NCBI RefSeq assembly: GCF_963921235.1 | Contig: NC_086108.1 | Location: 14,508,001-14,572,000, forward strand | Source of the DNA: Mobula hypostoma | Taxonomy: Eukaryota | DNA: 64,000 nt | Direction: 5' to 3' | Shown: piece by piece, positions 1-47,900 of the stretch | Layout: every line of letters starts with the position of its first letter | How positions within the stretch are numbered: position 1 is the first letter of the stretch | Program-made: the position numbers and the translations under genes | Notes under the pieces: model-generated | Seen by the model: only the letters and a program-made list of their open reading frames with translations | The model's database searches: none | What the model was told of the DNA's origin: nothing

Positions 1-1152
1 AAAGAAAGGAATGATGCAGTTGAGAAAAAGTTTGGCAACCGTATTAATTAACCAAAAATAAACTTTTTTGCCCATATAAAGCAAAAAAAAATTAAACTCA
101 ACAGATTAACAGCCTCCGATCAAACGGAGATAATTAAAAATTATGATTAAGATGTTGAAGGTGAAAATTGATCCAGGTAACTCTGGGCATCCAACGGAGA
201 ATCAAAAAAACGGAAAGCTCCGTCAGGCGTGTGGATCCTTAAACGCACTGGGTAAAGCAGCACTGGTTTTAAATCCATCTTGTAGAGTTCCGACATCACA
301 GATCTGTAACGAACACGTTGATCCCGAATCTGTTTACTGAAGTCTTCCACGAACTGAAAATGAAGATCCGAAAAATCAATGTAACCTTTAGGTCGAGCGA
401 ATCGAAGCAATTTCTCCTTGTCTTGAAAGTAATGAAATCGTAGAATAACTTGTCGAGGTTTATCTGACTTAGACGAATATGATGGAACTCTGTGCGCCCG
501 ATCCAATAAAGGAAATACGGTAGGAAATGAATCTTTTAAAAGTTGAGAAAAAAACTTTATAGGGTTGTCAGATTCAGCAGCTTCACGAATACCAATAATT
601 CGAATATTCTGCCGTCACATTCTGGATTCTAAGTCAGAGTTTTTAAAAGTCAGAAAGTCAAGTTTTTTCTTCATTACAGTAATTGTTTCTTCAATTTTCC
701 CCATCTTGAGTTCATTTTGTTGCGTGGATTTTTGAAGATTAAATATAGCAGACTGATGTTCCGTGATAGATGTTTGCATTTCATCGATTGCATCGGCAAT
801 TTTCTGGAGATTAATTGAAATTTCCGCACGAATCAGCTCCGTTATAGAGGTTGAAATTTCCCTTTGAATTAGATCCGATATAGCTTTCAAAGTTAACGGT
901 GGTTCAGTCGGAGGAAGATCGGTACCTTTCAGTCTAACCGGAGGTTTGCCGTCTTTCCCATTTTTCCCGTTCTTAGACATAGCAGACCATAAAAACATCC
1001 GAATATCAAAAAAACACAATTTGTTTCAAAGTATTATAAAAGTCGATGCCTTAATGGTTAGCTTAAATATAGCTGATCATAGGAAAAAAACTCAGAGGTA
1101 ATGGAGCGAGTCAAGAACACGACTTCACTCCATGAGCTCTACCGGAAGTCCC
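1..1152 (-). mobile_element. LINE-1-clade element: 5' UTR + ORF1, continuing off the left edge
   Basis: Minus strand begins GGGACTTCCGGTAGAGCTCATGGAGTG, followed by an A-rich ORF1 with a coiled coil and RQNIRIIG / DRAHR / PRQVILRF motifs. Confidence 0.8.
147..980 (-). pseudogene. L1 ORF1p with one premature stop
   Basis: ORFs 615..1019 and 147..506 are in the same frame. They join through ...DLESRM*RQNIRIIGIRE...LLDRAHR..., and the TGA at 615-617 sits at an expected Arg (CGA). Confidence 0.85.
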
Positions 1153-3590: not shown

Positions 3591-3676
3591 GACAGCGTAG
3601 ACAAGTCGGGTCGAAGGGCCAATTTCTGTGCTATATAATTCTGACTCTAAAGTTATTTCCTTCTTGTTTCATCCAG

Positions 3677-3889
3677 GGTCTCCGCTGGCAAGGGCCAGCA
3701 TTAAGAGCACCAAGCTATTGGAGGGTTCATCTTACTTCCGCCGCAAGGAGCGCATGCTACGCATCTCCATTCGTCACATGGTCAAGTCACATGCCTTCTA
3801 TTGGATTGTCCTGGGCCTGGTGGCCCTTAACACAGTGTGCGTTGCTATTGTCCACTATGACCAGCCCTTGTGGCTCTCCAACTTCCTAT
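3677..3889 (+). CDS. CACNA1E: Cav2.3-like calcium channel alpha-1 exon (end of I-II linker + IIS1)
   Basis: Acceptor ttcatccAG at 3675-76 and donor GTAAGT at 3890. Encodes (G)[70 protein letters not shown](Y). [11 protein letters not shown] is Cav2.3-like. 213 bp, phase 1-1. Confidence 0.95.
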
Positions 3890-5257
3890 GTAAGTACATT
3901 TCCTTCTCTTGCCTACCATTTGTTGGCCCACTCATTCAGGTTGAACTGTATTATATCAAAGTGAAGGTTGCAAATCGACCATGAATTAACTGCCATATAT
4001 TCACCTGAACCCCACAATACTTATGATCCTAACAAACTACATCTATCCATTAAAAGCTTAAGTTGATCTCAGCACACTTGCTTATTGGAGGAAGAAGTTT
4101 CTGCATCTCCCCTACTCTCAATATGAAGGAGTGCTCCTCATATCATTGCTGCCTCTCCTAGCTCTCATTGTGAGGGTGTGTCCATTGTCCTGCTCTCCCT
4201 TATGCAGGGAAATCTATCACTTTATCAATTCTCTCAAATGTTCATTGTCTTCGCTTTGTGCCTAAGGGTTTCTTCCTTCACCTTGCCTTCTCCCCACCCA
4301 CACCACTGTCAGGTAATTTTCTGAGATACAGCATATTAAATTCTGGACCCAGACTCTTCCTAGAATCCTTCTCACAATGGAACCACCCCCCCCCCCAAGA
4401 GAAGGGAACTGATATGGAAGCCAGGCAAGTACCAAGTCACCCCAGAGCTAAGTGCAAGGTCCCACCCAAATACTTTTTGATTTGGGGCAAGAGGGTGGGT
4501 AAGATACTTGTCAATCCAGCATCACCCATAATGTCTTTCACAATCTCAGAAAGTACCAAAGTACTTCAGTGTGGATGGAGTAACTTCATGAAAGAGGTGA
4601 TTACATAATGTGATCAAAGGAAACGTATGGCTTTTACTTCCGGAAGTAAATCCTGTCCTGGCTGAGAAGCAGACTGATCAACAGGACACATAGAAAGAAT
4701 AATGGACAAGTCTAGCAAAAGTAGTCAGTACAGCGGAAGGAGTGCTGATTGTTAATATCCAGAGCAAAAGGGCACAGAGGGGTGGAGGTATAAAATCTTG
4801 GTTAGTTGCCCTTGACAAAAGTTAGTCATGACAATAGTTGAGATCAGCCACAGTTAAAGAAGCATAAGCACTGCTGAGAAGTAAAGTGCCTTGGAATAAC
4901 CTGAGTTCTTGAAAAGTATATGAATGCAAATGAATTTTTTGTTATGCCCTATATTTGACAAGAACCAGTGAGGCGCTCTTGCTCTGCAATGGGATACAGT
5001 GCCTGACCTGAAGTGGGAAGCTCTTATTTCTTCAACGCCAACATATGAAGAGTTGCTGTCCTTCTGCTCTGCACCTCCCCCGTCCTTATCCCACCCCACT
5101 CCTAACACCTCAACAAGAGGCACCCAGGGAACAGGCCAGAGCTGGGGATGGACTGGTGCAGCTCTGTGACAACAATGCAGACTGGGGCTGCTCATGGGAT
5201 CTTGCTGTGCCTCTCACACCATCTGGTCTCTCTAATCCGTCCATTTCCTTTTCTCAG

Positions 5258-5370
5258 ACTATGCCGAATTCACCTTTCTGGGTCTCTTTCTGTCCGAGAT
5301 GTTTCTAAAGATGTACGGCTGTGGTCCTCGACTTTATTTTCACTCCTCCTTCAACTGTTTTGACTGTGGG
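5258..5370 (+). CDS. CACNA1E: Cav2.3-like exon (IIS2 to start of IIS3)
   Basis: ttttctcAG acceptor and GTGAGT donor. Encodes (Y)[37 protein letters not shown]. 113 bp, phase matches the previous exon (T|AC). Confidence 0.95.
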
Positions 5371-5414
5371 GTGAGTTCACAAGTATCCATCTCATCAAAG
5401 AACTTTCCTCCATT

Positions 5415-5645
5415 GTGTCTGGTAGCAGACCCCAGCAGAGCTGTAGTAGCAGACCTCTGCAGTACTGTGTGTCTTTGGTAGCAGATCGCTGCAGGACTGT
5501 GTCTTTGGTAGCAGATCGCTGCAGGACTGTGTCTTTGGTAGCAGACCCCAGCGGTGTTGTAGTAACAGACCCTAGCAGTGCTATGTGTCTTTTGTAGTGT
5601 ATCCCTGCAGTGTTGTATGTCTTTGGTTGCAGATATCTACAGGTC
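5415..5645. repeat. 30-bp minisatellite next to the exon donor
   Basis: Unit approximately GTGTCTTTGGTAGCAGATCGCTGCAGGACT. About 6-7 copies, degenerating at both ends. Confidence 0.8.
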
Positions 5646-6101
5646 TGTGTTAATGTACACCGACAGCAGCATGTAGCTAACTAATATCAGACACCATTTT
5701 TGTGTTATGTGAGAATCCCTCTAGCACTTTCTCATGGTATCTTCTATCAGCCATGTAGCTGTGTACAAAATTAGCTGGTATCAGGCATTTGACAGACTGT
5801 GAGAATGCGTCAGATAGCAGACCCCAAAATTCCTATGACTGTCTCACGGATCAGATACCAGGTCATTATTCACAGTTCACTAGATGTTATTATATCTTCG
5901 TAACATTAAATAACTGTGTCCTTATCATTCCTCTGTGGTGCAGTTTGACAATATGTCATGTCTATAATACTGTATAACTGTGTCTGGTTACACTTCCCTG
6001 TTATATTGTACAACTGCAATTGATTGCAGAACATTGTGTCTTTATCTGGTATTGGACTCTAGCCCCCATTGGTACTGTATGCTTGTGGTATCATATGTTT
6101 T

Positions 6102-7020
6102 TAACACAAGAGATTCTACAGACATTGGAAATCCAGAACAACACACAAAATGCTGAAGGAAGGTTGGGCTGCATCTATGGAGGGGAGTAAACAGTCAACA
6201 TTTTGGGCCAAGACCCTTCATCAAGACTGGAAAGGAAAGGGGAAGAAGCCAAAATAAGAAGGTGGGGGAAATGAAGTGAGAAGCTGTGAGGTGATAGGTG
6301 GAAGGGTTAAAGGGCTGAAGAAGAAGTAATTTGATAGGAGAGGAGGGTAGACCATGGGAGAAAGGAAAGGAGGAGGGTTACCAGACAGGTGTTGGTCGGG
6401 TGAGGAGAAAAGAAGGAGTAAGAAGGGAGCCAGAATGAGGAATGGAAAAGAGAGAAGGAAGAGGGGAGAGAAATTAGGAATGAGAAATCGATGTTCATGC
6501 TGTCAGGTTAGAGGCTACCCAGATGGAATATGCGGTGTCACTCATCTAAACTGAGTTTGACCTCTTTGTGGCAGTAGAGAGGCCATGAACTGATATGTCC
6601 TAATGGGAAGTAGGATTAAAATGGATGACCAGCAGGAAGTTACCCCTTTTGTGGCAGACGGACAAAGTGGTCTCCCAATATACCTCAGGTATCACTGGTG
6701 TAGAGAAGGATGCAACAGGGCACACTGGATACAATAGACGTCCCTGACAGACTCACAAGTGAAGTGTCACTTCACCTGGAAGGACTATTTGGGGCCCTGA
6801 ATAGTGGTGAGGAGGGAGGTGGCAGGACAGGTGACAGACTTGTCCTGCTTGAAGAAGTCAGTACTAGGTCAGTGGAGAGGAAGTCACATCAAGAACAACC
6901 CCTGCGGAAAGCAGAGAGTGGTGGCAGGGTGGGGCGGAATTAAAGATGTACTTAGTAATAGATGCTGTCGAAGATGGCAGAAATTACAAAGAATGACGTG
7001 CTGGGTGCGGAAGCTCGTGA
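6102..7020 (-). mobile_element. Old Penelope-like element 3' part (GIY-YIG remnant + terminal repeat)
   Basis: Reverse complement is homologous to 39430-40428, including a degenerate hammerhead near 6194-6229. Confidence 0.7.
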
Positions 7021-8746
7021 GATAACACGAGCCTGTTATCCATGGATTGTTGTATTGTCTGGCTGACTGTAAACATACCTTACAAGCAGCATGCCAGACT
7101 CTTCCACCGCTGTCCTCAGATACATACTATCTGGTCCCTCCTGAAACACTAAATTTTGAATGTACTCCAGGTGCAGGAACTTAACACCAGTAGATGTTTG
7201 GTCACATGGCTAGCACACTTCACACTGGCTAAGTCTGAAGTGATTCTGGTTAGAAGGGGCTTGTGGCAGGTTGTGAGTGAACCAGCACAAGTGAATTTAC
7301 CTGAGCTCAGCCTCCCTCACCTGTCTAACTGTGAGAGATGCACCTATCCCTGATGTTACTTATAAAGATGACCAGTTCTTGTGGAGGTAACATTCAATCT
7401 CTACATCAGTGAATAAGGGATAAACTGAGTAAATACAGGCCAATCAGTTTAACATGGTAAATTGATGTGTACCAAGGTACACAGAAAATCTTTCTTTTGC
7501 ATGCCATCAATATAGATCATTTCATCACTTCAGTATATTTAGGTAGTGCAAGGGAAAAGCAGTTATGGAAAAAGTGCAGTGGAGATGGTGTGAAGTCAGG
7601 AGTTCATCTTGTATACGGGGACCATTCTATAGTCTTGTAACAGTGGGATAGAACAGCGTCCTTGAGCTGGTGATACATGCTGTCATGCTTTTGTATCTTC
7701 TGCCCAACAAGAAAGGGTAGCAAAGAGAATATCTGGTGTGGGTGGAGTCCTTGATACTTTGGCTGCTTTACTGAGGCAGCATAAAGTGTAGACAAAGTCC
7801 TTGAAGTGGAGGCTAGTTTTTGTGATGTACTGAGCTGTGCCCACAACTCTCTGCAGTTTCTTGTGAGTTGGACAAAGCAGTTCCCTTACCAAGAGTAAAT
7901 GCATCATAGAGCACTACTGCACAGAAACAGACCTTTCAGAATATCTAGACCACACTGAGCTGTTCTGCATAGTCCCACCAACTAGCCACACCTGGGCCAT
8001 AGCCCTCCATACCCCTCTCATCCATGTACCTCTCCAAGCTTCTCTTAAGTGGTGCAATGAACCCACATCAACCACCTTTGCTGGCAGCTCATTCCACATT
8101 CTCACCACCCAGACTGAAGAATTTAAGATTCCCCCTAAATATTTCACCATTCAGTCCAAAGCTGTGACCTCAAGTTCTATTCTCAGCCAGTCTCAGGGGG
8201 TAATGCCTGCATCTATTTACACTGTCCAGAAAAATCTCCCTTCATTTCAGGGAATGAAGTCCTAGCGTATCCAAGTGTTACCCTTGTAATGGTGATCGGT
8301 GAGGTACAGAGAATCTGTATTTACCAACAAGAATCGCCCCTTTTAATGATGATCAGTGGGGTACAGAGAATCGGTATTTACCGACAAGTAACTTTTACTG
8401 TTTCAACTAAAAGCACATGGTTCACAAACTGTCTCCCTGTGACACCACGAGAATTCCTTGACTCTCCATGAACATTCAATGAAGAGAAAGGGTATTACCT
8501 GGGAAATGAGTCTGCCAGTTAAATGAGGCAACCCAGTCTAACGAGATTACCGATTGCAGATCTGGCATTTTACATAACAAGTAGCTGCTCCTCTGAGAAT
8601 GGTCTCAGGTATATTGCTCTGATTAGATTGTCCCAGAGTCAAGAATCAGTTCAGAGTCCACGCCCTTTACATAACAAATGGCTACTTGTTTGAGATGGTC
8701 TCAGGTTTAGCAGATCATTACCTGAAGCTTCCTGTGTCCACATTTA

Positions 8747-9921
8747 GGCTACGTCTACACTGGACCGGATAATGTTGAAAACACCGGTTTTGCGTACAAA
8801 CGATAGGCGTCCACACCAGGCGTTTTTTGAAAATACCTCCGTCCACATTAAAACCGGTATTTGGGCGAATCTCCTCCTACTGAGCATGCGCAGCTGTGTA
8901 CATACATCTATTGATGCATCTGGACACATCTTCAGTGATGTTCCTGGAATCATCAGGTGTTTCCGGTCTTTCAACATCATACAACCTTCTCCAGGTGACC
9001 CAGCCGGGGCTGATCAGACCCCAGCTTGTGTCCGGATGGCTAGCTACTTATGACTCCATGGCTCCCCTCTTTTGAGCCACAGCCATCTTGAGGCCCTCTC
9101 TGCCGCATCGGTGGTACTGCGGATGGCACTCCTCTTCCTCTCTCCCTCGATGCCCAAAATGCTGAAGGCCCTCTAACTAAAGAACGGGCTATGAATCCCC
9201 TACAACCAACCTCCACTGGGAGACACCTCGCTCTCCATCCAGCCTGCTGACAGTTGCTGACCAGTCCTGCGTACTTGGAGAGCTTCCTTTCAAAGGCCGC
9301 AGGACACATCTACAGAAAACAAGCAAAGAGAAAACGGTATACTTGGTGCACGTTTGTCCAGTTACAGACTTGAAAAACTTAAAAGGAAATTGCCAAACGA
9401 CGGGCAGCTGTTGGCTCTCACGCAGGAGGGCTTAAAACTAAAAAAACAAATACTCTACCATATGGAGGCAACCGACAGGGAGTTCACGGACAGTATGACC
9501 CGGCTGACAAGGAACACTGAAAAACTGACTAACTCTGTTGCAGAGGATTTGCCCCCCCCCCCCCAGTACTTCTCACCGCCACAATACCAGCCTCACAGCC
9601 ACTACAATAGCTACACATACGGACACACAGACCCCCAGGTGGCCCCACCAACATCTTCCCACTCCCACAGAGACCCTGGAAACATTTCCTACAGCCATAG
9701 TCTCTTCACCGATGAAAGGGACGACAGGCTTTTTAAAACCTCCGGTTACCTCGTACACACTACAACGCCCACCTGGCGTTTTCAGATTTAAACACTCTGG
9801 AGAAGGTTTTAGAAAAGCTCGGTTTTCAGGGGAGGAAACGCCATTTCAGTGTGGACGGAGGGTCAAAACGAAGAGAAGAGTCTTCGGTTACAGATTTATC
9901 CGGTCTCGTGTGGACGTAGCC
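8747..9921 (+). mobile_element. Non-autonomous PIF/Harbinger-like DNA transposon
   Basis: Terminal inverted repeats (TIRs) GGCTACGTCTACAC / GTGTGGACGTAGCC (13/14 match) with 3-bp flanks TTA/TCA. Internal ORF 9354..9791 is coiled-coil + Pro/Tyr-rich and resembles the C-terminus of a Harbinger Myb/SANT-like accessory protein (inference). Confidence 0.75.
8894..9297 (-). mobile_element. 5'-truncated RLE-type (HERO-like) non-LTR retrotransposon nested in the Harbinger
   Basis: AFERKLSKYAGLVSNCQQAGWRARCLPVEVGCRGF matches the restriction-like endonuclease C-terminal motif (ERK..KY / PVEVG.RG). Flanked by CGCAG repeats at 8889-93 and 9298-9302. Confidence 0.75.
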
Positions 9922-10288
9922 TCAGTTGCTCTCATTAGATTATCCAAGAGCAAGAAACTGTTCAGAGTCCACAAAATGGGGGAAACAAAGACGACTGGCT
10001 TGTCGGCTTCCCCTGTCTTTGATCAGACTGAAGTTTCTTCTGGCCAACACAACCTTTCTCTGTAACTCAGGTCCCTGAGTTCGGACAATAGCCTTCTGCA
10101 TCATCCACTACACCTCCAATCTTGATGTTATTCACAAATTTGCTGGTACGGTTCACATTATCATCTAGATCATTAAAGTGGATGATAAACAACAACACCC
10201 AATCCAGAAGTGCCTTTCCCCTGGCGGGATCAACCACAAGTGGTTCTAAAAAGCCATCTCATAGGCATTCTGCAAAGTCCCCCTCTTG

Positions 10289-10731
10289 TGGTGGATTCTG
10301 ATGTTTAAATCAAGGTTCTTTTAGAAGTCAGGAATGAAGCATAAGAAATGTTGCTTCACAATCATTTAATTAACAATTGATAAAACAAAGGGAAGTTGAA
10401 ACAAACAGGGACAGAGGTCTACTACTTACGGAAACTAAAGAAAAGATGGTGCCTAGCACCAAACAGCTACTGTTATACCATAGTGATGAGAAAAATTCCA
10501 TTCTAATCTATAGATAATAATAATCCAATTAGAAAATACTTACTCAATACTGCAGTAAAAAGTTAACCATTGAGAAAAACGCTTATTTACTTGATGCAGT
10601 CCAAAGCTTCCGGAATTATATTTGTATAGCCACTAGAGGCATTTTAAAATGTTATGTATATAAAAGCAACTTAAAATACAATCAGATAATTCATTATTAA
10701 GCTGTAAGGAAAATTACAATTTGATCCAATA
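10289..10731. mobile_element. AT-rich insertion in CR1, possible solo LTR
   Basis: Imperfect inverted ends TGGTGGAT...ATCCAATA with CTTG/CTTA flanks. CR1 sequence resumes on both sides. Confidence 0.35.
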
Positions 10732-10787
10732 CTTAGGTCCAGCACCAACCTGATTTTCCCAGTATACCTGCATATTAAAATCCCCCA

Positions 10788-11082
10788 ATGACGCGTGGCC
10801 AAGTGGTTAAGGCGTTCGTCTAGTGATTTGAAGGTCGCTAGTTCGAGCCTTGGCTGAGGCAGTGTGTGTGTCCTTGAGCAAGGCACTTAACCATTTAACA
10901 ACTTAACCACTTAACTCTGCGTCAACATCAGTGCCAAGCTGTATGGGTCCTAATGCCCTTCCCTTGGACAACATCGGTGGTGGGGACAGGGGAGACTTGC
11001 AGCATGGGCAACTGCTGGTCTTCTGTACAACCTTGCAAGGCACAAATCCATAGTCTCATGAGACTAACGGATGCCTATAAAA
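10788..11082 (+). mobile_element. tRNA-derived SINE with a CORE-like central motif
   Basis: A box TGGCCAAGTGG, B box GTTCGAGCC, motif GTGTCCTTGAGCAAGGCACTTAACC and an A tail. 11-bp TSD AAAATCCCCCA at 10777-87 and 11083-93. Confidence 0.85.
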
Positions 11083-12742
11083 AAAATCCCCCATGACTAT
11101 CATAACATTGCCCTTATTTAAATGTCTTTTCTACCTCCCATTATAATTTGTACCTCACATCCTTGCTACTGTTTGGAGGCCTGTATATAACTCCCATTAG
11201 GGTTGTTTTACCCTTGTTGTTTCTTAACTCTACCCACAAGGATTCTATATCTCCTCATTCTACAGATTTGATTTCATTTTTTTACTGACAGAGCCTTTGC
11301 CTGCCTGCCTGTCTTTTCGATATAATGGGCATACTTTGTTGTTGAGCTCCCAACTATGATCTTTCTGACACAACTCAGTGATGCCAATCTCTAACTGCAC
11401 TACAAGATCATCTATCTTATTCTGTATACCGTGTACATTCAAATATAACACCTGCAGTCCTGTGCTGGTCACACTTGAGAATTTTGCTCCTAAGTTTTAC
11501 TTCAACTTAGCCCACAAGCTGCAACTTTGCTCTATCTGTCCTTCCTCCCAGTCCCACTACACTCTGCATCTAGCTCTATACCAACTGTCCCATCTTCTAC
11601 CCTATCACTCAGGTTCCCACACCCCGCTAAATTAGTTTAAACCCTCCCTAACAAGTCTAGCTAACCTGCCCGCAGGGATATTGGTCCCCGTTGTGTTCAG
11701 CTGTAACCCTTCCTTTTTGTACAGATCGTACCTTCCCCAGAAGAGATCCCAATGATCCAGAAATCTGAAGCCCTGCCCCTGACAATTCTTCAGCTACACT
11801 TTCATCTGCCAAATCATCCTTTTCCTACCCTCACTGGCATGTGGCATAGGCAGCAGTCCAAATGTTACTACCCTGGAAGTCCCGTTTTTCAGCTTTCTGC
11901 CTAATTCCCTATGTTCTTTCTTAAAGACCTGCTCCCTTTTCTTATCTATATTGTCGGTACCAATATGTATCACAACTTCCAGCTAACCACCCCCCCCCCC
12001 ACCTTTTAGAATGTTTGGACCTGTACCGATGTCCCTGATCCTGGCACCTGGGAGACAACATACCATCTGGGTGTCTCTTTCCCCATCGACAGAATCTGCT
12101 TTCTGCTCCTTTAACTATGGAATTCCCTCCATCCCGCCTTTCTGAGCCACAGAGCCAAACTCAGTGCCAAAGACCTGACTGCTGTGGCTTTCCTCTGCTA
12201 GGTCATTCCCCCACCAACATTATTCAAAGTGGTATCCATGTTGTTGAGGGAAATAGCCATGGTGTTACTCTGCAGTAGCTGCCTTTCTCCTCTCCTGACG
12301 GTCACCCTGTTACCTGTGTCCCACACCTTGGGGGTAACCTCCTCGCACCGTATGTCCTGTTAATCAACTCCTCATCCAGTTCCTGTTCCAGTTCCAATTC
12401 CTTAACATGGTCTGTTAGAAGCTGCAGCTGTCTGCACCTCTTGCAAGTGTAGTTATCAGGGACACTGGCCGTCTCCTGCCTTCCCACATCCCACAAGAGG
12501 AGCCTCCCGCTATCCTACCTGGCACCCCCCTCTGCTCTAACTGCAGTAAAAAAGAAAGAAAAATTAAATGAAAATTTTCATCAAAAATTAACAAAGCTTT
12601 ACTCTAGCTTCCAAATCCCTGTTTAGCCTTACCTCTTCCTTTGTAATATAAACAATTCTTTGAGTTGTTTGTGATATTACAATGCCAGCATCTGAATCCT
12701 CTTTGAACATAACAGTATTAATAATGGTGATTAGCACTGTTC

Positions 12743-31847: not shown

Positions 31848-32323
31848 CACAGACTGTAGCTCGATCCTCACTGGACCCACAGACGGTAGCTCGATCCTCA
31901 CTGGACTCACAGACAGTAGCTCGATCCTCACCGGATCCACGGACCGTAGCTTGATCCTCACTGGACCCACGGACCGTAGCTTGATCCTCACTGGACCCAC
32001 GGACCGTAGCTCGATCCTCACTGGACCCACAGACCGTAGCTCAATCCTCACTGGACCCACGGACCGTAGCTCGGTCCTCGCTGGACCCACAGACTGTTGT
32101 TCGATCCTCACTGGACTCACAGACGGTAGCTCGATCCTCACTGGACCCACAGACGGTAGCTCGATCCTCACTGGACCCACAGACGGTAGCTCGATCCTCA
32201 CTGGACCCACGGACCGTAGCTCGATCCTCACTGGACCCACGGACCGTAGCTCGATCCTCACTGGACACGCAGACCGTAGCTCGATCCTCACTGGACCCAT
32301 AGACTGTAGCTCGATCCTCACTG
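31848..32323. repeat. 30-bp minisatellite, ~16 copies
   Basis: Unit CAC(A/G)GAC(C/G)GTAGCTCGATCCTCACTGGACC, arranged head-to-tail with no spacers. Confidence 0.95.
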
Positions 32324-36000: not shown

Positions 36001-38207
36001 CTCCATACCAAAAAAAGAAAAAGGCTTGCCTCTTCTTAAGTGTGCCTTTGCCTGTTTTCACCAAAGTCTGTCAAGCCAAAGCCTCCCCACTCTATCACTG
36101 GCCCACTCCAACAATGTCCGCTCCACTCGAGCTTACTTTCCCTTTATTTGCAGCTGAGTTTAGGTCTTTGACACCAACACTTCCCACACCTGCACAGCCC
36201 AAAAATAGTCCTTGCCTGAATCTGCTCCTTTTATACTCTCTCTCCCAACTTCCACAGGGCTCTGACTCTGACATTCACATTCCCTACACCTGAGCTGGCA
36301 AAAAAAGACTGGATTTTTACAAGTCTGCTATTTTTATATTCACGCTCCAAATTTCAGTAAGCCTCTGACACTGACACTTAACCACACCAGCGCAGGCCAA
36401 ATAGACCAGCTTTAACTTAGAAACGTAGAAAATAGGTGCAGGAGTAGGCCATTTGGCCCTTCGAGCCTGCACCGCCATTCAGTATGATCATGGCCGATCA
36501 TCCAACTCAGAACCCTGTACCTGCCTTCTCTTCATACCCCATGATCCCTTTAGCCACAAGGGCCATATCTAACTTCCTCTTAAATATAGCCAACGAACTG
36601 GCCTCAACTGTTTCCTGTGGCAGAGAATTCCACAGATTCACCACTCTCCGTGTGAAAAAGTTTTTCCTCATCTCGGTCCTAAAAGGCTTCCCCTTTATCC
36701 TTAAACTGTGACCCCTCGTTCTGGACTTCCCCAACATCGGGAACAATCTTCCTGCATCTAGCCTGTCCAATCCTTTTAGGATTTTATACGTTTCAATAAG
36801 ATCCCCCCCTCAATCTTCTAAATTCCAGCGAGTGTAAGCCTAGTCAATCCAGTCCTTCATCATATGAAAGTCCTGCCATCCCAGGAATCAATCTGGTGAA
36901 CCTTCTTTGTACTCCCTCTATGGCAAGGATGTCTTTCCTCAGATTAGGGGACCAAAACTGCACACAATACTCCAGGTGTGGTCTCACCAAGGCATTGTAT
37001 AATTGCAGTAGTACCTCCCTGCTCCTGTACTCGAATCCTCTTGCTATGAATGCCAGCATACCATTCGCCTTTTCACCGCCTGCTGTACCTGCATGCCCAC
37101 TTTCAATGACTGGTGTATAATGACACCCAGGTCTCGTTGCACCTCCCCTTTTCCTAATCGGCCACCATTCAGATAATAATCTGTTTTCCTGTTTTTGCCA
37201 CCAAAGTGGATACCCTCACATTTATCCACATTAATTTGCATCTGCTGTGAACTTGCCCACTCAGCTAACCTATCCAAGTCACCCTGCATCCTCTTAGCAT
37301 CCTCCTCACAGCTAACACTGCCGCCCAGCTTTGTGTCATTCACAAACTTGGAGATGCTGCATTTAATTCCCTCATCTAAGTCATTAATATATATTGTGAA
37401 CAACTGGGGTCCCAGCACTGAGCCTTGCGGTACCCCACTAGTCACTGCCTGCCATTCTGAAAAGGTCTCGTTTATTCCCACTCTTTGCTTCCTGTCTGCC
37501 AACCAATTCTCTATCCACATCAATACCATACCCCCAATATCGTGTGCTTTAAGTTTGCACACTAATCTCCTGTGTGGGACCTTGTCAAAAGCCTTTTGAA
37601 AATCCAAATATACCACATCCACTGGTTCTCCCCTATCCACTCTACGTTACATCCTCAAAAAATTCTATGTGATTCATCAGACATGATTTTCATTTCACAA
37701 ATCCATGCTGACTTTGTCCGATGATTTCACCGCTTTCCAAATGTGCTGTTATCACATCTTCCCCACCACCGATGTTAGGCTAACCGGTCTATAATTCCCT
37801 GGTTTCTCTCTCCTTCCTTTTTTAAAAAGCAGGGTTACATTAGCCACCCTCCAATCCTCAGGAACTAGTCCAGAATCTAAAGCGTTTTGAAAAATTATCA
37901 CTAATCCATCCACAATTTCTTGGGCTCCTTCCTTAAGCACTGTGGGATGCAGACCATCTGACCCTGGGGACTTATCTGCCTTTAATCCCTTCAATTTACC
38001 TAACACCACTTCCCTACTAATATGTATTTCCCTCAGTTCCTCCATCTCACTGGACCCTCTGTCCCCTACTATTTCCAGAAGATTACTTATGTTCTCCTTA
38101 GCAAAGACACAACCAAAGTAGTTATTCAATTGGTCTGCCATGTTCTTGTTCCCCATGATCAATTCACCTGTTTCTGACTGTAAGGGACCTATATTTGTCT
38201 TAACCAA

Positions 38208-40428
38208 CCACGCTCTGCTCTCCACTCCCTCCGCATTAATCCTAACCTTACTATAAAACCCGCCGATAAGGGGGGTGCTGTTGTAGTCTGGCATACTGAC
38301 CTCTACCTTGCCGAGGCACAGCGACAACTTGCGGATACCTCGTCTTATTTACTCCTCGATCGTGACCCCACTAAGGAGCACCAGGCCATGGTCTCCCACA
38401 CCATCACCGACTTTATCCGCTCAGGGGATCTCCCATCCACTGCTACCAACCTTATAGTTCCCACACCTCGCACTTCCCGTTTCTACCTCCTACCCAAGAT
38501 CCACAAATCTGCCTGTCCTGGCAGACCTATTGTCTCAGCTTGCTCCTGCCCCACCGAACTCATTTCTGCATACCTCGACGCGGTTTTATCCCCCCTTGTT
38601 CAATCCCTTCCTACCTATGTTCATGACACTTCTCACGCTCTTAAACTTTTCGATGATTTTAAGTTCCCTGGCCCCCACCGCTTTATTTTCACCATGGATG
38701 TCCAGTCCCTGTATACTTCCATCCCCCATCAGGAAGGTCTCAAAGCTCTACGCTTCTTTTTGGATTCCAGACCTAATCAGTTCCCCTCTACCACCACTCT
38801 GCTCCGTCTAGCGGAATTAGTCCTTACTCTTAATAATTTCTCCTTTGGTTCCTCCCACTTCCTCCAAACTAAAGGTGTAGCCATGGGCACCCGTATGGGT
38901 CCTGGCTATGCCTGCCTTTTTGTTGGCTTTGTGGAACAATCTATGTTCCGTGCCTATTCTGGTATCTGTCCCCCACTTTTCCTTACTACATCGACGACTG
39001 CATTGGCGCTGCTTCCTGCACGCATGCTGAGCTCGTTGACTTTATTAACTTTGCCTCCAACTTTCACCCTGCCCTCAAGTTTACCTGGTCCATTTCCGAC
39101 ACCTCCCTCCCCTTTCTAGATCTTTCTGTCTCTATCTCTGGAGACAGCTTATCCACTGATGTCTACTATAAGCCTACTGACTCTCACAGCTATCTGGACT
39201 ATTCCTCTTCTCACCCTATCTCTTGCAAAAATGCCATCCCCTTCTCGCAATTCCTCCGTTTCTGCCGCATCTGCTCTCAGGATGATGACAAGGGAGATGT
39301 CCTTTTTTAAAGAAAGGGGCTTCCCTTCCTCCACTATCAACTCTGCTCTCAAACGCATCTCCCCCATTTCACGCACATCTGCTCTCACTCCATCCTCCCG
39401 CCGCCCCACTAACAATAGGGTTCCCCTGGTCCTCACCTACCACCCCACCAGCCTCCGGGTCCAACATATTATTCTCCGCAACTTCCGCCACTTCCAACGG
39501 GATCCCACCACTAAGCACATCTTTCCCTCCCTCCCTCTCTCTGCTTTCCACAGGGATCGCTCCCTACGCGACTCCCTTGTCCATTTGTCCCCCCCATCCC
39601 TCCCCACTGATCTCCCCCCTGGCACTTATCCGTGTAAGCGGAACAAGTGCTACACATGCCCCTACACTTCCTCCCTTACCACCATTCAGCGCCCCAGACA
39701 GTCCTTCCAGGTGAGGCGACACTTCATCTGTGAGTCAGCTGGGGTGATATACTGCGTCCGGTGCTCCCGATGTGGCCTTCTATGTATTGGCGAGACCTGA
39801 TGCAGACTGGGAGACCGCTTTGCTGAACACCTACGCTCTGTCCGCCAGAGAAAGCAGGATCTCCCAGTGGCCACACATTTTAATTCCACGTCCCATTCCC
39901 ATTCTGACATGTCCATCCACGGCCTCCTCTACTGTAAAGATGAAGCCACACTCAGGTTGGAGGAACAACACCTTATATTCCGTATGGGTAGCCTCCAACC
40001 TGACGGCATGAACATTGACTTCTCTAACTTCCGCTAGTGCCCCACCTCCCCCTAGTACCCCATCTGTTACTTATTTTTATACACACATTCTTTCTCTCTC
40101 TCTCCTTTTTCTCCCTCTGTCCCTCTGACTATACCCCTTACCCATCCTCTGTTTCCACCCCCCCCCGTCTTTCTCCCCGGATCTCCTGTCCCATGATCCT
40201 CTCATATCCCCTTTGCCAATCACCTGTCCAGCTCTTGGCTCCATCCCTCCCCCTCCTGTCTTCTCCTATCATTTTGGATCTCCCCCTCCCCCTCTCACTT
40301 TCAAATCTCTTACTAACTCTTCCTTCAGTTAGTCCTGACGAAGGGTCTCGGCCTGAAACGTCGACTGAAACTCTTCCAATAGATGCTGCCTGGCTTGCTG
40401 CGCTTACCAGCAGCTTTGATGTGTGTTG
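38208..40428 (+). mobile_element. 5'-truncated Penelope-like retroelement (RT + Cys linker + GIY-YIG; Neptune-like)
   Basis: FYLLPKIHK..PGRPIVS, MDVQSLYTSIP, GVAMGT, YIDD (38987-98, frameshifted), CKRNKCYTC and VIYCVRC..C..LCIGET*..RFAEH motifs. 14-bp TSD TTTGTCTTAACCAA at 38194-207 and 40429-42. Confidence 0.92.
40331..40366 (+). ncRNA. Minimal type I hammerhead ribozyme motif in the Penelope-like terminal repeat
   Basis: AGTCCTGACGAAGGGTCTCGGCCTGAAACGTCGACT. Confidence 0.8.
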
Positions 40429-41712
40429 TTTGTCTTAACCAATCTTTTTCTTTTCACATATCTGTAAAAGCTTTTACAGTCAGTTTTTATATTCCCTGCC
40501 AGTTTTCTCTCATAATCTTTTTTCCCCCTCCTAATTAAGCCCTTTGTCCTCCTCTGCTGGACTCTGAATTTCTCCCAGTCCTCAGGTGAGCCGCTTTTTC
40601 TGGCTAATTTGTAAGTTTCTGCTTTGGAATTGATACTATCCCTAATTTCCCTTGTCAGCCACGGGTGCACTACCTTCCCTGGTTTATTCTTTTGCCAAAC
40701 TTTTACCCGAATCTGCTCCTTTTATTCCTTCTCTTCCAATTGTATGAAAAGGTTTCTCATCAGATCCCTGGGTCCTACACTCCTCCACTAGGAAAGATCA
40801 ACTTTTCATGCACTTTCCATATGCTTTTGATATTTGATAGGTTTCACTGATATACCCCCTCACTTGCCTTATAAAGCCTCAGCATTACATCCTTGCTTTT
40901 ATATTCTGGACCTCTCAAAATTAATGCTAACATTGCATTTACCTTCCTTACCACTGACTCAACCTGCAAGATAACTTTTAGGGAATCCTGTACGAGGTTT
41001 TCCTAGTCCCTTTGCACTTCTGATTTCTGCACTTGCTCCCTGTTTAGAAAATACTCTATGCTTTTATTCCTACTACATAACCATACACTTCCCTACACTC
41101 AATTCCATCTGTCAGTTCTTTGCCCGTTCTCCTAATCTGTCTGAATCTTTCTGCAGACTCCTTTCTTCCTAAACACTACCTGCTCCTCCATCTATTTTCG
41201 TATTGCCCACAAACCTGGCAACAAAGCCATCAATTCCATCATCCATATAAAGTAAAAAGAAGCGGTCCCAACACAGACCCTTGTGGAACACCAGTAGTCA
41301 CGTACTGCCGGTCAGAAAAGGCTCCCTTTATTCCCACTCTTTGCCTCCTGCCAATCAGCCAATCTTCCATCCATGCTAGTATCTTTCATATGATACCATA
41401 AGTTCTTGTCTTGTATAGCAGCCTCACGTGTGGTACCTTGTCAAAGGCCTTCCGAACATTCAAGTAAACAATATCCACTAACTCTCCTTTGTCTATTCTG
41501 CCTGTTATTTCATCCAGCAGATTTATCAGACAAGATTTTCTCTTATGGAAAGCAAGCCTATCCAACCTCTCTCTATAACTCAAGCCCCCCCCCCCCCCAC
41601 TGAGTCCTAGCAGCATCTTCATAAATCTTCTCTGCACTCTTTCCAGTTTGGTGTCTTTCCTTTAACAGGACGACCAAAACTGCACACCAATACTCCAATT
41701 CATTAACACAGG

Positions 41713-42355
41713 TGTAAGGGGTTCTTCTTTCATGTTACTTGCTAAGGCTAATAAAGTGGCTTCTCTGCAGTGTTATAATAAAATGGCTTCTCTGTAATGT
41801 TAACTGCTGAGGTAAGGAGTTCTCTGTAGCAGCATGTTTGGGTTATAATTAGTAATAATGGGACTTGTATTCATTTGCTAACCAATTGGGACAGATGTTA
41901 TTCTTTCTTGTGTGTCTGTAAGCTGTTGTTTGCACAGGATTTGGCCAGAACGCGCCATGGGGATGAAGAGAGAAGGCGTACATGAAGAGAAGCTGTGAAC
42001 TGGCTTGCGGAGTGGACCCCGAGCAGGGGCTCAGGACCCGGCGGAGTTCGGAGGAGATCGAATGGTGGAAAGTGGATATTGCGTGAACTCCACGAATTAT
42101 TTGTGCACAGACTGAATAAAGATATAGTGGCACCTTTTTATTTTGTATTTTGGTTCTCTACTAACCCCATAGTTCAAGTAAGAGTTATAAAATCTTAATT
42201 ATTTCACCGCATCATGTGTACAGCTTGTCATTACGGGGTACTGGTTTAAAACAGGGGACACATCGCACAGCATTCACTCAAACGTGAGTTCTAAGGTTTG
42301 GCTGGGCAGGGGATATCACCCCTCGATCATATCGCTAGACTAAGCGAGGGTTGCA
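41713..42355 (+). mobile_element. 5' LTR of a Gypsy-type retrotransposon
   Basis: TGTAA...TTGCA ends, AATAAA at 42115-20, followed by a primer-binding site (PBS). Confidence 0.85.
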
Positions 42356-42358
42356 ATG

Positions 42359-42377
42359 TGGGGGCTCGTCCGTGGAT
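42359..42377 (+). promoter_or_regulatory. Primer-binding site (tRNA-Pro)
   Basis: TGGGGGCTCGTCCG(T)GGAT is complementary to the tRNA-Pro 3' end and lies 3 nt after the LTR. Confidence 0.85.
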
Positions 42378-44757
42378 TTGATTCTGTGGAAGGCTGTGTG
42401 ATCGCCCTGTTTAAATCAGTGCTGCTGTGTCTCTGTGGGATTGCGGTTAGTAACGTGTGTCTCTGTGGGATTGCGGTTAGTAACGTGTGCCTCTGTGGGA
42501 TTGCGGTTAGTAACGTGTGTCTCTGTGGGATTGTGGTTAGTAACGTGTGTCTCTGTGGGATTGCGGTTAGTAATGTGTGTCTCTGTGGGATTGTGGTTAG
42601 GAACGGGTTCAGTGGGGTGGATATTCGTACCCAGGAGGAATTGTTCATTCGATTTCGGAGTTTTGGTAAAGCTGAGGGCGAAGTTGAAAGTGTGGCGCGA
42701 AGGTCTGATAAAATGGCGGGCTCATTCTTTGTCCTAGATCTGACTAGCACTGACATCATGGTAGTGGGACTCCCAGTGTCTGTTGGTGAGGTGGGGTCAT
42801 GGGCTGTCCATACTGTCAGGAGTGAGAGTAAAGAGTGGGCAGAACAAACGTCTTAGTTGTTGGTGAGTGGCAGTGCTCGGCTGAGGAAAAGCGACAGGAA
42901 TTGGTTGGAAGTTTGGATAGGCGGGCTGCTGACATTGTTCGAACTGTCTGGTTTAATTACCCCACAGTGACAGCTGCCAGTTATCTGTAAGCGCAGGACA
43001 AGGCGTTTGGTTCGACTGGGAGCAAAATACAGCTAAATTGGTTGCGGTGCCGGGGGAGGGGGGGTGGTCAGTCAGGCGGCTGAGGTGGATCAGGTAGCCC
43101 CTCCCTCATTTGTTCAGCTGATCAGAGAGGAGATTCAGTTGGGGAACTGCCTGGTGTCTCTTGGGGGAACACATTCCCAGTGGTGTACCAAGGAACTCCT
43201 GAAAGATAAAGACCCTATTTCTGAAGGCCCAGTGGGGCTGCTCTCCAGTGGGTCGTTACGGAGGGTTGGAAGCTATGCTAAAGCCATACTCGGCACCAAG
43301 TCGCAGGTCAAGTTGTTGTACAGTTCGTTTTACAGCTGGTTTCTGAAGCACTTACCCTTGACAATATTCAGGGAACTGGAGATTTGGGGTACCTGTGCTG
43401 GTGATTATCCAGATGACGGTTATTGGTCAGTGAAACTGGAGTTCTCGGAGGCCAATGTGGGGGTCTCTGAGGGTCGTGAATCGTTAGTGCTGATGTGTCT
43501 GGACACTGTTGCGACGGGCAGCATTTCGATTCTGGAGGGGACCAACACCCCGCTGGTGAGGAGGCGCATGGGGGCCTGCCAGGAGAAGGTGGGCGAGAGC
43601 TGTTTTGGGGGCATTGTCTGTGCACCCTGTGTTTTGAGCTGATTGTGAGGACGTGTGTAGCAGCATTGGGCCTGTGCCAAATTTAAATGAGAGCTGATGC
43701 TGGTACGGCCCGGGGCAAGTATCTGAGGGTGAGGCCCTCTTACTGGACACTCCGAAATACCACGGGGGGGGGGGTGGGGGTGCAGGGGAGTTGACCACTG
43801 AAGACACCTTGGTGAGAGAGAGGTCACGGCGACTGGCCCCTGCAGACGTGGAGGACATAGGCAGCGTGTGTGTGGATTATAGGACTCTGAACAGGCGCAC
43901 TGTCCCTGACCAGTATGCGGTCCCGAGAGTCGAAGACGCACTGGTCTGTCTGAGTGGTGCAAAGTGGTTTAATGTGCTGGATCCGAGGAGATGATGTTGC
44001 CAGATGAGTGAGACCGACAAAGAGAAGATGGCCGTTATAGGTCCCCTGGGATTCTTCCAGTCCGAAAAGATGCCCCAGGGCATATTCGGAGCCCTTGCAA
44101 TCTTCCCGCGGGGCATGGGGAAGACGGTGGGGGATGTGGAATTGTTTGGAGTTTTGGTGTATTTGGATTTGCCTTGGAAGACGATGAAGTGAGGCGAGTG
44201 CGGGATCACAGACGACTAGGGGTTAAAGAAGTAAAACTTTCTCTGGGCACATGCCAGGTCTGGCGAAAGTCGCAGCTCGTGAGTGTTCTGCGTTCATTTG
44301 TGGAATTCTGTGGTTATTATTGGAGAAATTATCCAACGCACCAGTTGAATTTCCTGGTGTTGGAACAGACTGTGGTGGTGGGGGAGCTGAGTGACTGTCT
44401 CTACGGGATCAAGTTTGAAGTGGAGACAGAGAAACAGAATTCCAAGCAGAAACTGGAGAAATTGATCCAGAACAGGTTGGAAGACTTGCACATTGGGGAA
44501 GACAAAGGATGCTGTCTGACTAGGTCCAACAGAGAACGGAGAGCACAGAGAGGGGAGTCTGAATACAGTTCAGAGGAGGTGAAGCAATGGCGGACAGATC
44601 CCGGAAGAGGGGAGCAGAAGCTTGAAGGAGACCTAAGATGATCATTGACAGCCTAAATGAAATGGGAAAACTGGAAGTTGAACAGGAAGAAGTCATTAAG
44701 AAGAAAAAGCTGGAGCTAAGTTCAGGGACCACTAAACTGGAGGAGTCCAGGAAGTAC
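42378..44757 (+). pseudogene. Degenerate Gypsy gag-pro-RT internal region
   Basis: PNMA-like gag remnants (SFVQLIREE), protease remnant AILGTKSQV (cf. LDTGSQV), and RT remnants [36 protein letters not shown] and VYLD. Confidence 0.8.
42426..42600. repeat. 30-bp tandem repeat (~6 copies) in the gag 5' region
   Basis: Unit GTGTGTCTCTGTGGGATTGCGGTTAGTAAC, translating as (CLCGIAVSNV)n. Confidence 0.9.
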
Positions 44758-45404
44758 TACAACCCTCCCTTAGTCTAGCGGTATGATCGAGGGGTGATAT
44801 CCCCTGCCCAGCCAAACCTTAGAACTCTCGTTTGTGTGAATGCCGTGCAATGTGTCCCCTGTTTCAAATCAGTACCCCGTAATGACAAGCTGTACACATG
44901 ATGCGGTGAAATAATTAAGATTTTATAACACTTACTTGAACTATGGGGTTAGTAGAGAACCAAAATATAAAATAAAAAGGCGCCACTATATCTTTATTCA
45001 GTCTGTGCACAAATAATTAGTTGGAGCTCCTCACGCAATATCCACTTTCCACCATTCGATCTCCTCCGAACTCCGCCAGGTCCCCAGCCCCCGCTCGGGG
45101 TCCACTCCGCAAGCCAGCTCACAGCATCTCTTCATGTGCATCTTCTCTCTTCATCCCCATGGCGCGTTCTGGCCAAATCCTGCGCAAACAGCAGCTTTCA
45201 GATACACAGGAAAGAATAACATCTGTCCCAATTGGTTAGCAAGTGAATACAAGTCCCATTATTACTAATTATAACCCAAACATGCGGCTACAGAGAACCC
45301 CTTACCTCAGCAGTTAACATTACAGAGAAGCCATTTTATTATAACACTACTGAGAAGCCATTTTTTTAGCCTTAGCAAGTAACATGAAAGAAGAACCCCT
45401 TACA
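44758..45404 (-). mobile_element. Second full-length LTR of the same family, inverted
   Basis: Reverse complement of 41713-42355 end to end (TACAACCCTCCCTTAGTCTAG...AAGAAGAACCCCTTACA), with scattered substitutions. Confidence 0.9.
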
Positions 45405-47900
45405 CAAGAGATAATGCAAATACTGGAAATATTTGTGAAACACACATAAAATGCTGGAGGAACTCAGCAAGTGATGTAGCATCTATGGAGGGAAATAAAC
45501 AGTTGATGTTTCGGCCCACTGGATACAAAAGAAGCAGAAACCAAAATGAAAACAATGGTGGTGAGGGGCTGGAGGGGCAGGGGCAGGTAATAGGTGAGGC
45601 CAAGTGAGGGAGAAGATTGGAGGGGAGGGGGAACGGAACAAGAAGTTGGAAGAGGATAGGTAGAAGAGGTGAAGGGTTGAAGAAGGAATCTAGCAGGAGA
45701 ATGCAGTAGACTATTGAAGAAAAGGAAGGAGGAGGGAAGCCAGAGGGAGGCGAGAAGAGAATGGAGTGAGTGGGTAACCAGACGAGGAATAAAATAAAGG
45801 GAGAAGAAGGGAAGAGAGAAAATTACCGCAAATTAGATAAATCGATGTTCATGCCATCGACTAAGAGGCTACCCAGATGGAATATGAGGTGCTGCTCCTC
45901 CAACCTGAGTTTGGCCTAATTGTGGCAGTATAGGAGACCATGGGCAGACATGTTAAAATGGAAATGGGTTGCCACTGGGAGATCCTACTTTTTGCAAATG
46001 ACAGAGTGAAAGTGCGTGACAAAGCGGTCCCCAATCTACATCATGTTTCACCAGTGAAGAGGGGGACACACCAGGTATAGTACAATATATGACCCTGTCA
46101 GTCTTGTAGGTGAGGGGTCACCTCACTTGGACAGACTGTTTGGAGCCCTGAATGGTGGTGAGGGGGGATGTGTAGGGGCAGGTATAGTACTTGTCATACT
46201 TGCAGGAACAAGTGCCAGGAGGGAGATCAGTGGGTAAGGGAGTCATGTGGAGAGCAATCTCTACAGAAAGCAGAGGGTGGGGCAGGTATGCTTCGTCGTG
46301 GGATGCTGTTGGAGATGCCGGAAGTTACAGAGGCTCGTGAGGTAGTAGGTCAGGATAAGGGGATCCCAATGCCTGGTAGGACAGTGGGAGAATGTGGTGA
46401 GTATAGATGAGCAGGAAATGGAGGAATTGTGAATGAGGGCGATGGAAGGGAAACCTATTCTTTGAAAAAGGAAGATACCTCAGATGTTCTGAAATGGAAA
46501 GCCTCGTCCTGAGAACAGATGCAGCAGAGAATGTGGAACTGAAAGAAGGTAATAGCAATTTTACAAGTGACAGGATGGAAAGAGGCATAGTCAGATAGCT
46601 GTGAGAGTCAATGGGTTTGCAAAAGATATCAGTAGATAGTCTTCCTCCAGAGATGGACACAGAGAGATCAAAAAAGGGGAGAGAGCTGTCAGAGATGCAG
46701 TTGTTTGTGTAGCAGTGAAAACGTTGGGGAGTGTTACCATTGTAGGCTTGGTACATGGACAAAGCCAATGAAACAGCAGGAAGAGCTACAGCCCATGTGA
46801 GTTCACATAGCTATACCTTGAGTTTGGAGAAAACGGGCGGAACTAAAAGAGAAATTTCTTACCCTCAACAATTTCTTTTTCAGTTCCACCAGACAGAGGA
46901 GGGTGGTGGTGGAGAGGAACCGGTCAACTCTGTTGTCCAGAAGGAAGTGGAGAGCTTTAAGGCATTCCTGATGGGGTATAGGAGTGTTTATGGACTGGAC
47001 ATTTGTAATGAAAATAAGGCAATCCTATCCAGGTAACTGAAAGTGGTTGAAGTGATAAAGTGTCACCAATGTAGGTAGAAAGTTACTAAACAAAGGGGGT
47101 CAAAATGGAGTCAAGGTGGTTTCAGTAGGGCAGGAACATACAGAAACAATGGGCCTACCAGTACAGTTAGGTTTGTTGGATTTTGGGTAGGAGGTATAAA
47201 CAAATAATGGTGAGGTTTGTGGCAGTGGATTGGAGATTATGGAGTCAATGAGACTGGTGACTATGAAGGCAAAAATGGCCTGATGCCCTCTTTAAGGGGT
47301 AGGTAGGGAGAAGGGCCTGAGAGATACCATCAGGACTTAGCAAGTTGGAGGTCAGTCCACCAGCAAGCCCCTTGTCAGTAGGTTTGATAGTGAGGTTGGA
47401 ATTGGTGTGAAGAGAGTGGAGGACAGTGTGTTCAGAGGACTTGAATAGGAGAGAGGAATGCTGGAGTCGAGAATTGATGTCTCATTGGCAGTTAGGAATG
47501 AAAAGCAGGGAGAAGGCCAGAGCAATGTGTCTAAGGACAGAAGGAGGGCTGAAGACAGGCGAAAGGGTCATTGGTGGGGCTGGGTAGTTTTTGTCAAAGA
47601 AGTAGGCTGGGAGCCGGAGGCAATGGGAAGAGAGCTCAGCATCATGGCGGGCATGGAATTCATTGAGTTCTGGGTACAGGGGGACAACGGTAAAGCTCTT
47701 GCTGAGGCCTTAGTGAGGGGAAGGTTGGACGGGATGGTGAAAGCATGGCAGCCTGAGACACGAGGGATGGTTGAATAAGAGAAGTGGTAGCACCAGCTGC
47801 AGTGAGAAAGATCCTGGCCTGTGGCCGAGGACAGAGCCAGGGGCTTCCAATACTGCAAGTGTGGTCTCATCAACATCTTATCTCTGTTCCAATTACAATT
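45405..47900 (-). mobile_element. Old decayed Penelope-like element
   Basis: LPFFDLSVSISGGRLSTDIFCKPIDSHSYL is homologous to the RT thumb at 39100-39200. The terminal repeat begins AACA|CAAGAGATAATGCA and is cut by the LTR element. Confidence 0.75.

Follow-up and report, generated by a model that had tools for sequence, protein, structure and literature searches.

A stretch of 64,000 nucleotides of DNA from the ray Mobula hypostoma (contig NC_086108.1), referred to here as the window, carries a decayed Ty3/Gypsy-type unit bounded by two complete long terminal repeats (LTRs) that face in opposite directions. The structure is real and unusually clean. The likely reading of the inverted unit is a single copying accident inserted in one step, rather than a new type of element. 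Most probably, the unit is a dead by-product of a Gypsy family that is ordinary, though cargo-laden.

The LTRs of Ty3/Gypsy elements stand in direct orientation, whereas the second LTR of this unit is inverted. A global alignment of the left LTR (41713-42355) with the reverse complement of the right one (44758-45404) runs end to end at 94.7% identity, with 609 matches, 23 transitions, 11 transversions and 4 gap columns (K2P, the Kimura two-parameter distance, 0.055). The 34 substitutions are evenly distributed along the length. BLAST of the pair gave 94.1% across 645 columns and found no third LTR copy in the window. Both outer termini of the unit read TGTAAGGGG, which is the start of the LTR (its U3 end). 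The initial annotation had described two full-length inverted LTRs with their U3 ends outward, and the end-to-end alignment bears this out. The U5 end of the flipped LTR reads TTGTA in its own sense versus TTGCA in the left LTR, and the LTR termini form a 4-of-5 inverted repeat (TGTAA/TTGCA). The AATAAA at 42115 in the left LTR is likely the poly(A) signal. Decay since insertion would amount to about 5.5% between the LTRs.

As judged from its flanks, the whole unit occupies a single target site in the tail of a Penelope-like element, since these flanks rebuild one tail sequence and the GTAC on the inner side of the right LTR matches none of the others. The left flank ends in AACA followed by CAGG. 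CAGG and CAAG on the right are identical at three of four positions, as a short (4-6 bp) target-site duplication, and, given the divergence of the LTRs, a 4-bp duplication would be expected to carry one mismatch in 20% of cases. The interrupted tail is found uninterrupted as AACACAAGA in two copies within the window, near 6103 and 50343; other copies differ. The 8-mers with at most one mismatch from AACACAAG, a motif picked post hoc, occur at 77 of 127,984 positions. Both the single target site and the use of GTAC as an argument against an independent solo LTR had been put forward earlier. The first is confirmed by the two uninterrupted copies, and the second stands, reinforced by the rare letters common to both LTRs that are described below. 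A fairly intact Penelope-like element, homologous to the interrupted repeat, lies at 38184-40036. A Pfam search of this element returned RVT_1 only (E 0.0026), and we take it and the homologous tail to be Penelope-like on account of the reverse transcriptase (RT) and GIY-YIG-like motifs that the element has within 38184-39800.

The interior was mapped by tblastn onto P0003, the Gypsy polyprotein LOC132390922 of Hypanus sabinus (Table 1). The order is that of Ty3/Gypsy elements, with a primer-binding site directly after the 5′ LTR and a Gypsy-type RT and RNase H following gag and protease, all on the plus strand. The primer-binding site at 42359-42371 is presumably of the tRNA-Pro (proline transfer RNA) type. 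A search with the RT fragment gave 168 Gypsy polyprotein matches, the best from a ray having an E-value of 5.7e-20, while a Pfam search of eight decayed interior fragments returned no match. The integrase part of P0003 found no tblastn match in the interior. No polypurine tract was seen before the flipped LTR, with no purine run of at least 9 after 44709. A comparison with Ginger-type DNA transposons and MITEs (miniature inverted-repeat transposable elements) found no transposase in the interior, and the window holds neither a tRNA gene nor an Rfam family. In total, 85 of the 2,402 interior bases are left unassigned. The initial annotation had read the interior as decayed gag, protease and RT. 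These Gypsy parts hold and an RNase H remnant is added to them; a myosin rod piece of 323 bases at 44432-44754 had gone unrecognised.

Table 1. Features of the inverted unit and its target site, with positions in the window
Feature	Position	Strand	Basis or remark
Left target-site duplication, CAGG, differing at one base from the right copy	41709-41712		Sequence
5′ LTR, 643 bp, TGTAA...TTGCA	41713-42355	+	Sequence, alignment
Primer-binding site TGGGGGCTCGTCC, 3 bases past the LTR	42359-42371	+	Sequence
30-bp unit in six copies, in frame with the gag start	42426-42605	+	Sequence, tblastn
Decayed gag pieces with stops, frameshifts and deletions	42545-43129	+	35-39% identity to P0003
Decayed protease region of pol	43163-43820	+	56% to P0003 residues 470-614
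Decayed RT with internal deletions	43797-44326	+	58% to P0003 residues 815-973
RNase H remnant, running in frame into the myosin piece	44324-44431	+	61% to P0003 residues 1177-1211
Captured sarcomeric myosin heavy-chain rod piece, frameshift near 44634, cut at 44754	44432-44754	+	phmmer, ray gene models
Three bases TAC at the inner junction	44755-44757		Sequence comparison
Complete inverted LTR, 647 bp	44758-45404	-	U5 end at inner junction, U3 end outward
Right target-site duplication, CAAG, running on into the interrupted Penelope-like tail	45405-45408		Sequence

The 30-bp repeat at the start of gag maintains an open frame of 170 codons (42344-42856). Elsewhere in the window, a 30-bp unit is repeated 16 times at 31848-32323 (91% matches), where frames are open on both strands and the Pfam match is sub-threshold only, and a short tandem array with a 24-30-bp unit lies at 5422-5545.

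The myosin piece was recognised by phmmer, which aligns 44441-44638 to residues 994-1059 of myosin-7 (E 0.0086), and it is 75-83% identical to ray gene models. The second myosin frame alone (44626-44757) matched only designed repeat proteins in PDB and was assigned via the ray gene models. From what is generally known of myosin genes, the piece presumably spans exon joints. Among 269 proteins screened, the cargo was matched by 12, of which 10 ray gene models from Mobula birostris, M. hypostoma, Hypanus sabinus and Hemitrygon akajei were counted as family. The other two were excluded as myosins: P0245, a lungfish myosin-7-like protein that is a full myosin, and P0141, a myosin-6-like protein of Narcine. 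The fusion of RNase H to myosin is 80% identical to P0121 and P0122 across the join, and the window copy, P0121 and P0122 alike lack 42 internal residues of the cargo, which exists in long and short forms. Some copies have been annotated by NCBI as MYH16-like or myosin-like genes, MYH16 being the database label of P0123, P0125 and P0127. By sequence comparison, the window copy is a member of a non-autonomous, myosin-carrying Gypsy family of rays. Searches of metagenome and viral contigs found no match to the exact 21-base LTR pattern and no locus related to P0121.

The relatives extend at least 45 codons past the cut of the window copy. A second myosin piece (myosin-7 around 1395-1423), starting at this cut, is present in 8 of the 10 ray models, and also in P0129, which fell below the threshold. 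As these relatives continue past the cut and no polypurine tract was found, the window copy is 3′-truncated, having lost at least 45 codons together with the purine tract. Three of the ten models end in LTR sequence that runs in the sense of the cargo, which is what a direct 3′ LTR would produce. A peptide spanning the inverted junction was found in none of the ten, and an antisense LTR match in none of the 269 proteins.

Contigs from four runs, representing two organisms (A and B), were aligned to 42620-45700. The RNase H-myosin fusion is multi-copy in all four runs, with other copies 86-90% identical, and every bin of this range, cargo included, lies far over single-copy contig depth. Summed depth is 18,000-60,000 over 45195-45400, in the U3 part of the right LTR, versus 1,050-12,200 in the rest of the LTR, which suggests that this segment is common to many more LTR families. 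Contigs of all four runs also contain a strand switch at 45472-45512, inside the Penelope-like tail, as would be expected from inverted copies of the tail elsewhere in the genome.

The contigs also bear on the origin and age of the unit. Among the differences listed, the right LTR departs from nearly all contigs at nine sites. At six of these the common letter stands in the left LTR, and at the other three (44908, 45225 and 45263) both LTRs have the rare one. These rare letters fit a single parent template for the two LTRs, though later conversion would look alike. Organism A contigs have no differences over 203 bases of the interior and 188 bases of the right flank. In organism B, contigs of single-copy depth have 12 differences in 451 internal bases and 2 in 216 bases of flank, the internal differences being fewer than the divergence of the LTR pair predicts for a paralogue (P 0.005); none of the organism B contigs listed joins interior to flank. 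The insertion is probably older than the split of organisms A and B.

At the inner junction, the myosin sequence stops at 44754 and, after three bases, the exact U5 end of the flipped LTR begins. The three bases, TAC, are identical to those with which the flipped LTR opens and match neither the next residue of the relatives (lysine) nor the spacer after the left LTR. A copy of the primer site is not attached to the flipped LTR at this point. At either end, the flipped LTR stops exactly at a natural LTR terminus. By rough estimate, free breakpoints would hit both termini by chance in about 1 in 1e5 cases and one terminus in about 1 in 165. A stretch 9 bases upstream of the junction agrees with the primer-site complement at 8 of 10 bases, the best of 2,109 positions. 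As a priming site mimicking that for tRNA, this match is weak and was given little weight, being out of register and no better than the top 5-6% by pairing energy.

The account that we favour, with about even confidence, is that RT switched templates to give a complementary DNA (cDNA) with two U3 ends, which was inserted by integrase with a normal duplication. Plus-strand strong-stop DNA normally transfers to the element's opposite end through the primer site, according to the accessible text of PMC6894440. Here, strong-stop DNA comprising U3-R-U5 and devoid of the primer-site tail may instead have been joined head-to-head to plus-sense sequence within the myosin cargo, whether it primed on RNA or was itself the template for a stalled plus strand. 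The two ends of such a DNA, the U3 start and the U5 end, are the two breakpoints of the flipped LTR. Completed copying would yield the order LTR, internal region, flipped LTR, in which both termini are valid U3 substrates for integrase, and the integrase of a helper likely inserted it in one normal step. Lacking both a polypurine tract and, at its 3′ end, a same-sense R, the product would be dead on arrival. In the available part of PMC1950507, malformed elements that have flanking duplications are traced to template switching as their accepted origin, and by that of PMC5131818 the cargo capture of the family is the same kind of error. The template-switch account is supported by the flipped LTR that is exact to its termini, the single rebuilt site, the gene models and the rare letters in common. 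An integrated cDNA with two U3 ends was among the suggestions of the initial annotation, and the one target site and the natural termini of the flipped LTR speak in its favour.

Several points weigh against template switching. Normal plus-strand strong-stop DNA has a copy of the primer site, which is lacking here. The primer-site-like match near the junction is 3 bases out of register and lies only in the top 5-6% by pairing energy. The extra bases TAC suit host end-joining at least as well, and microhomology at the junction could not be shown from the sequence. Gene models favour open frames, and their last exon may derive from any downstream LTR on the same strand. None of the 32 contig pieces listed bridges 44757/44758, so the junction has no read confirmation; none of the 15 joints listed touches it, which is evidence neither way.

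The main rival of the template-switch account is the integration of two donors, which we regard as possible but rather unlikely. At a single site, one integrase complex would insert the U3 ends of two cDNAs, or of a cDNA and a DNA made up of the LTR alone. The host would then repair the gap by joining the free ends, trimming one of them into the myosin cargo and adding 3 bases, and any second full copy would later be reduced to a solo LTR. Two-donor insertion is familiar from test-tube work. The anatomy and the 4-bp duplication would be identical, and both the missing primer-site copy and the 3 extra bases are accounted for, the latter better than by a template switch. The rare letters common to both LTRs also fit two donors, provided that these came from one parent locus. 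More steps are required, however, since one donor must keep its U5 end intact while the other is heavily trimmed. Retroviral ends left uninserted by integrase do get joined by host enzymes, as the accessible text of PMC5041404 indicates. The term U3-U3 is absent from the papers listed on the question.

Rearrangement after a normal insertion is improbable. In such a case, a break in the cargo would be repaired by backward copying of the 5′ LTR, or the 3′ LTR would be inverted with a deletion, and the original 3′ boundary would be rejoined through the short terminal repeat of the LTR. The 4-of-5 inverted repeat at the LTR ends could guide one such switch, the 3 extra bases fit repair, and the rare letters in both LTRs fit this origin too. 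Against it, the inner breakpoint would have to fall exactly on the U5 end, which is the one-terminus coincidence estimated above. The purine tract and the 3′ cargo would be expected to survive a simple flip, and both are missing; sequence was therefore lost in the same event, which argues against a clean flip. The precise in-place LTR flip proposed earlier is thus unsupported, as the relatives run on beyond the cut and no purine tract precedes the flipped LTR.

It is doubtful, and distinctly so, that the unit belongs to a subfamily that multiplies with inverted LTRs. Plus-strand strong-stop DNA of a helper would prime read-through RNA at the 3′ end, and a polypurine tract would be dispensable because that DNA is complementary to the flipped LTR; the resulting cDNA would have two U3 ends acceptable to integrase. 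Inverted-LTR Gypsy derivatives of rays would then form a self-propagating class, and the junction would recur with different target duplications. The geometry would permit this, and the summed contig depth by the junction is about 20 times that of single-copy sequence (157-266 in the bin 44680-44782 versus about 5-13), a ratio that is not a copy number. This depth is nevertheless accounted for by normal copies that match as far as the cut. The propagating subfamily raised by the initial annotation also finds no support among the ray gene models, none of which reads through the inverted junction, whereas 8 of 10 continue normally.

An assembly artefact, with the second LTR placed backwards, is very unlikely. 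The inner and outer junctions are unbridged among the contigs listed, whose range excludes the left junction. The two LTR arms differ at 34 sites, however, so neither was copied from the other, and a mis-oriented LTR would leave the purine tract in place and fail to restore the target site; the organism A contigs, moreover, match both the interior and the right flank without a difference. Nested insertions of LTR elements are common, but the later insertion in reverse of an unrelated family member, with deletion of the remainder of the first element, is the least probable of these explanations, as the flanks of the right LTR (GTAC and CAAG) do not match each other, the outer one matches the outer flank of the left LTR, and the rare letters common to both LTRs speak against it. 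Self-insertion of the U5 end by integrase was rejected, since it predicts a clean CA junction, where TA and 3 extra bases are observed, and leaves no free second U3 end.

Inverted terminal repeats flanking gag and RT are also a feature of the DIRS elements, as described in the accessible text of PMC7192593. The unit differs from these in its tRNA primer site, its integrase-type duplication and its near-identical full-length repeats. A DIRS identity was rejected on the grounds of a Gypsy-type RT, no recombinase and no internal complementary region. Pfam gave no match to a tyrosine recombinase, and the few unassigned bases apart, the interior belongs to other parts; the remark in the initial annotation that none was visible is therefore upheld. 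A search of the interior for a region complementary to the outer termini gave best local scores of 15-20 out of 120, equalled by 43-195 of 200 shuffles.

Among known systems, the closest are the fish Ty3/Gypsy elements with a PNMA-type gag, of which P0003 is the nearest. The unit is like these in the TGT start of the LTR, the primer site after the 5′ LTR, the order of gag, protease, RT and RNase H, pol pieces that are 56-61% identical, and the 4-bp duplication. It is unlike them in having neither integrase nor polypurine tract, and in its myosin cargo and inverted second LTR. On account of this inverted LTR, the unit is a malformed derivative of Ty3/Gypsy and not an intact member.

Gene capture by LTR elements has already been described. 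In LTR-mediated retrocopies, likewise, sequence derived from host messenger RNA (mRNA) lies within an LTR element and is fused to pol in the same frame (Tan et al. 2016, PMC5131818, as far as its accessible text goes). Unlike these retrocopies, the ray chimera has multiplied as a family in four ray species, and the window copy became malformed again later. Complex LTR elements provide a precedent for malformed cDNA integrated in one event, which flanking duplications and similar outer LTRs have shown (Sabot and Schulman 2007, PMC1950507; bioRxiv 10.1101/452573). In the available portions of these sources the elements have three direct LTRs, whereas the unit is truncated and has two LTRs head-to-head; the word “inverted” is absent from the accessible text of PMC1950507. 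Defective proviruses with inversions or uneven LTRs resemble the unit in being integrated errors of RT or integration, among them mis-transferred plus-strand strong-stop DNA (PMC9278108; PMC5041404). The accessible parts of these two papers do not describe a whole LTR in flipped orientation together with two U3 ends and a short duplication of the normal kind. No Gypsy insertion with inverted full-length LTRs was found in the titles and abstracts searched, a coverage outside which most subscription journals lie, so that one may have been published.

As a one-off, the unit would be a fossil suggesting that Gypsy integrase accepts two U3 ends in vivo, in the vertebrate germ line. Structure-based LTR finders search for direct repeats, and units with inverted LTRs would therefore escape counting. 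If the junction were found to recur, it would point to a replication route that is independent of the polypurine tract. The myosin-carrying family, seen in four ray species, is a large instance of gene capture, itself a known process, and it explains the spurious “MYH16-like” gene models.

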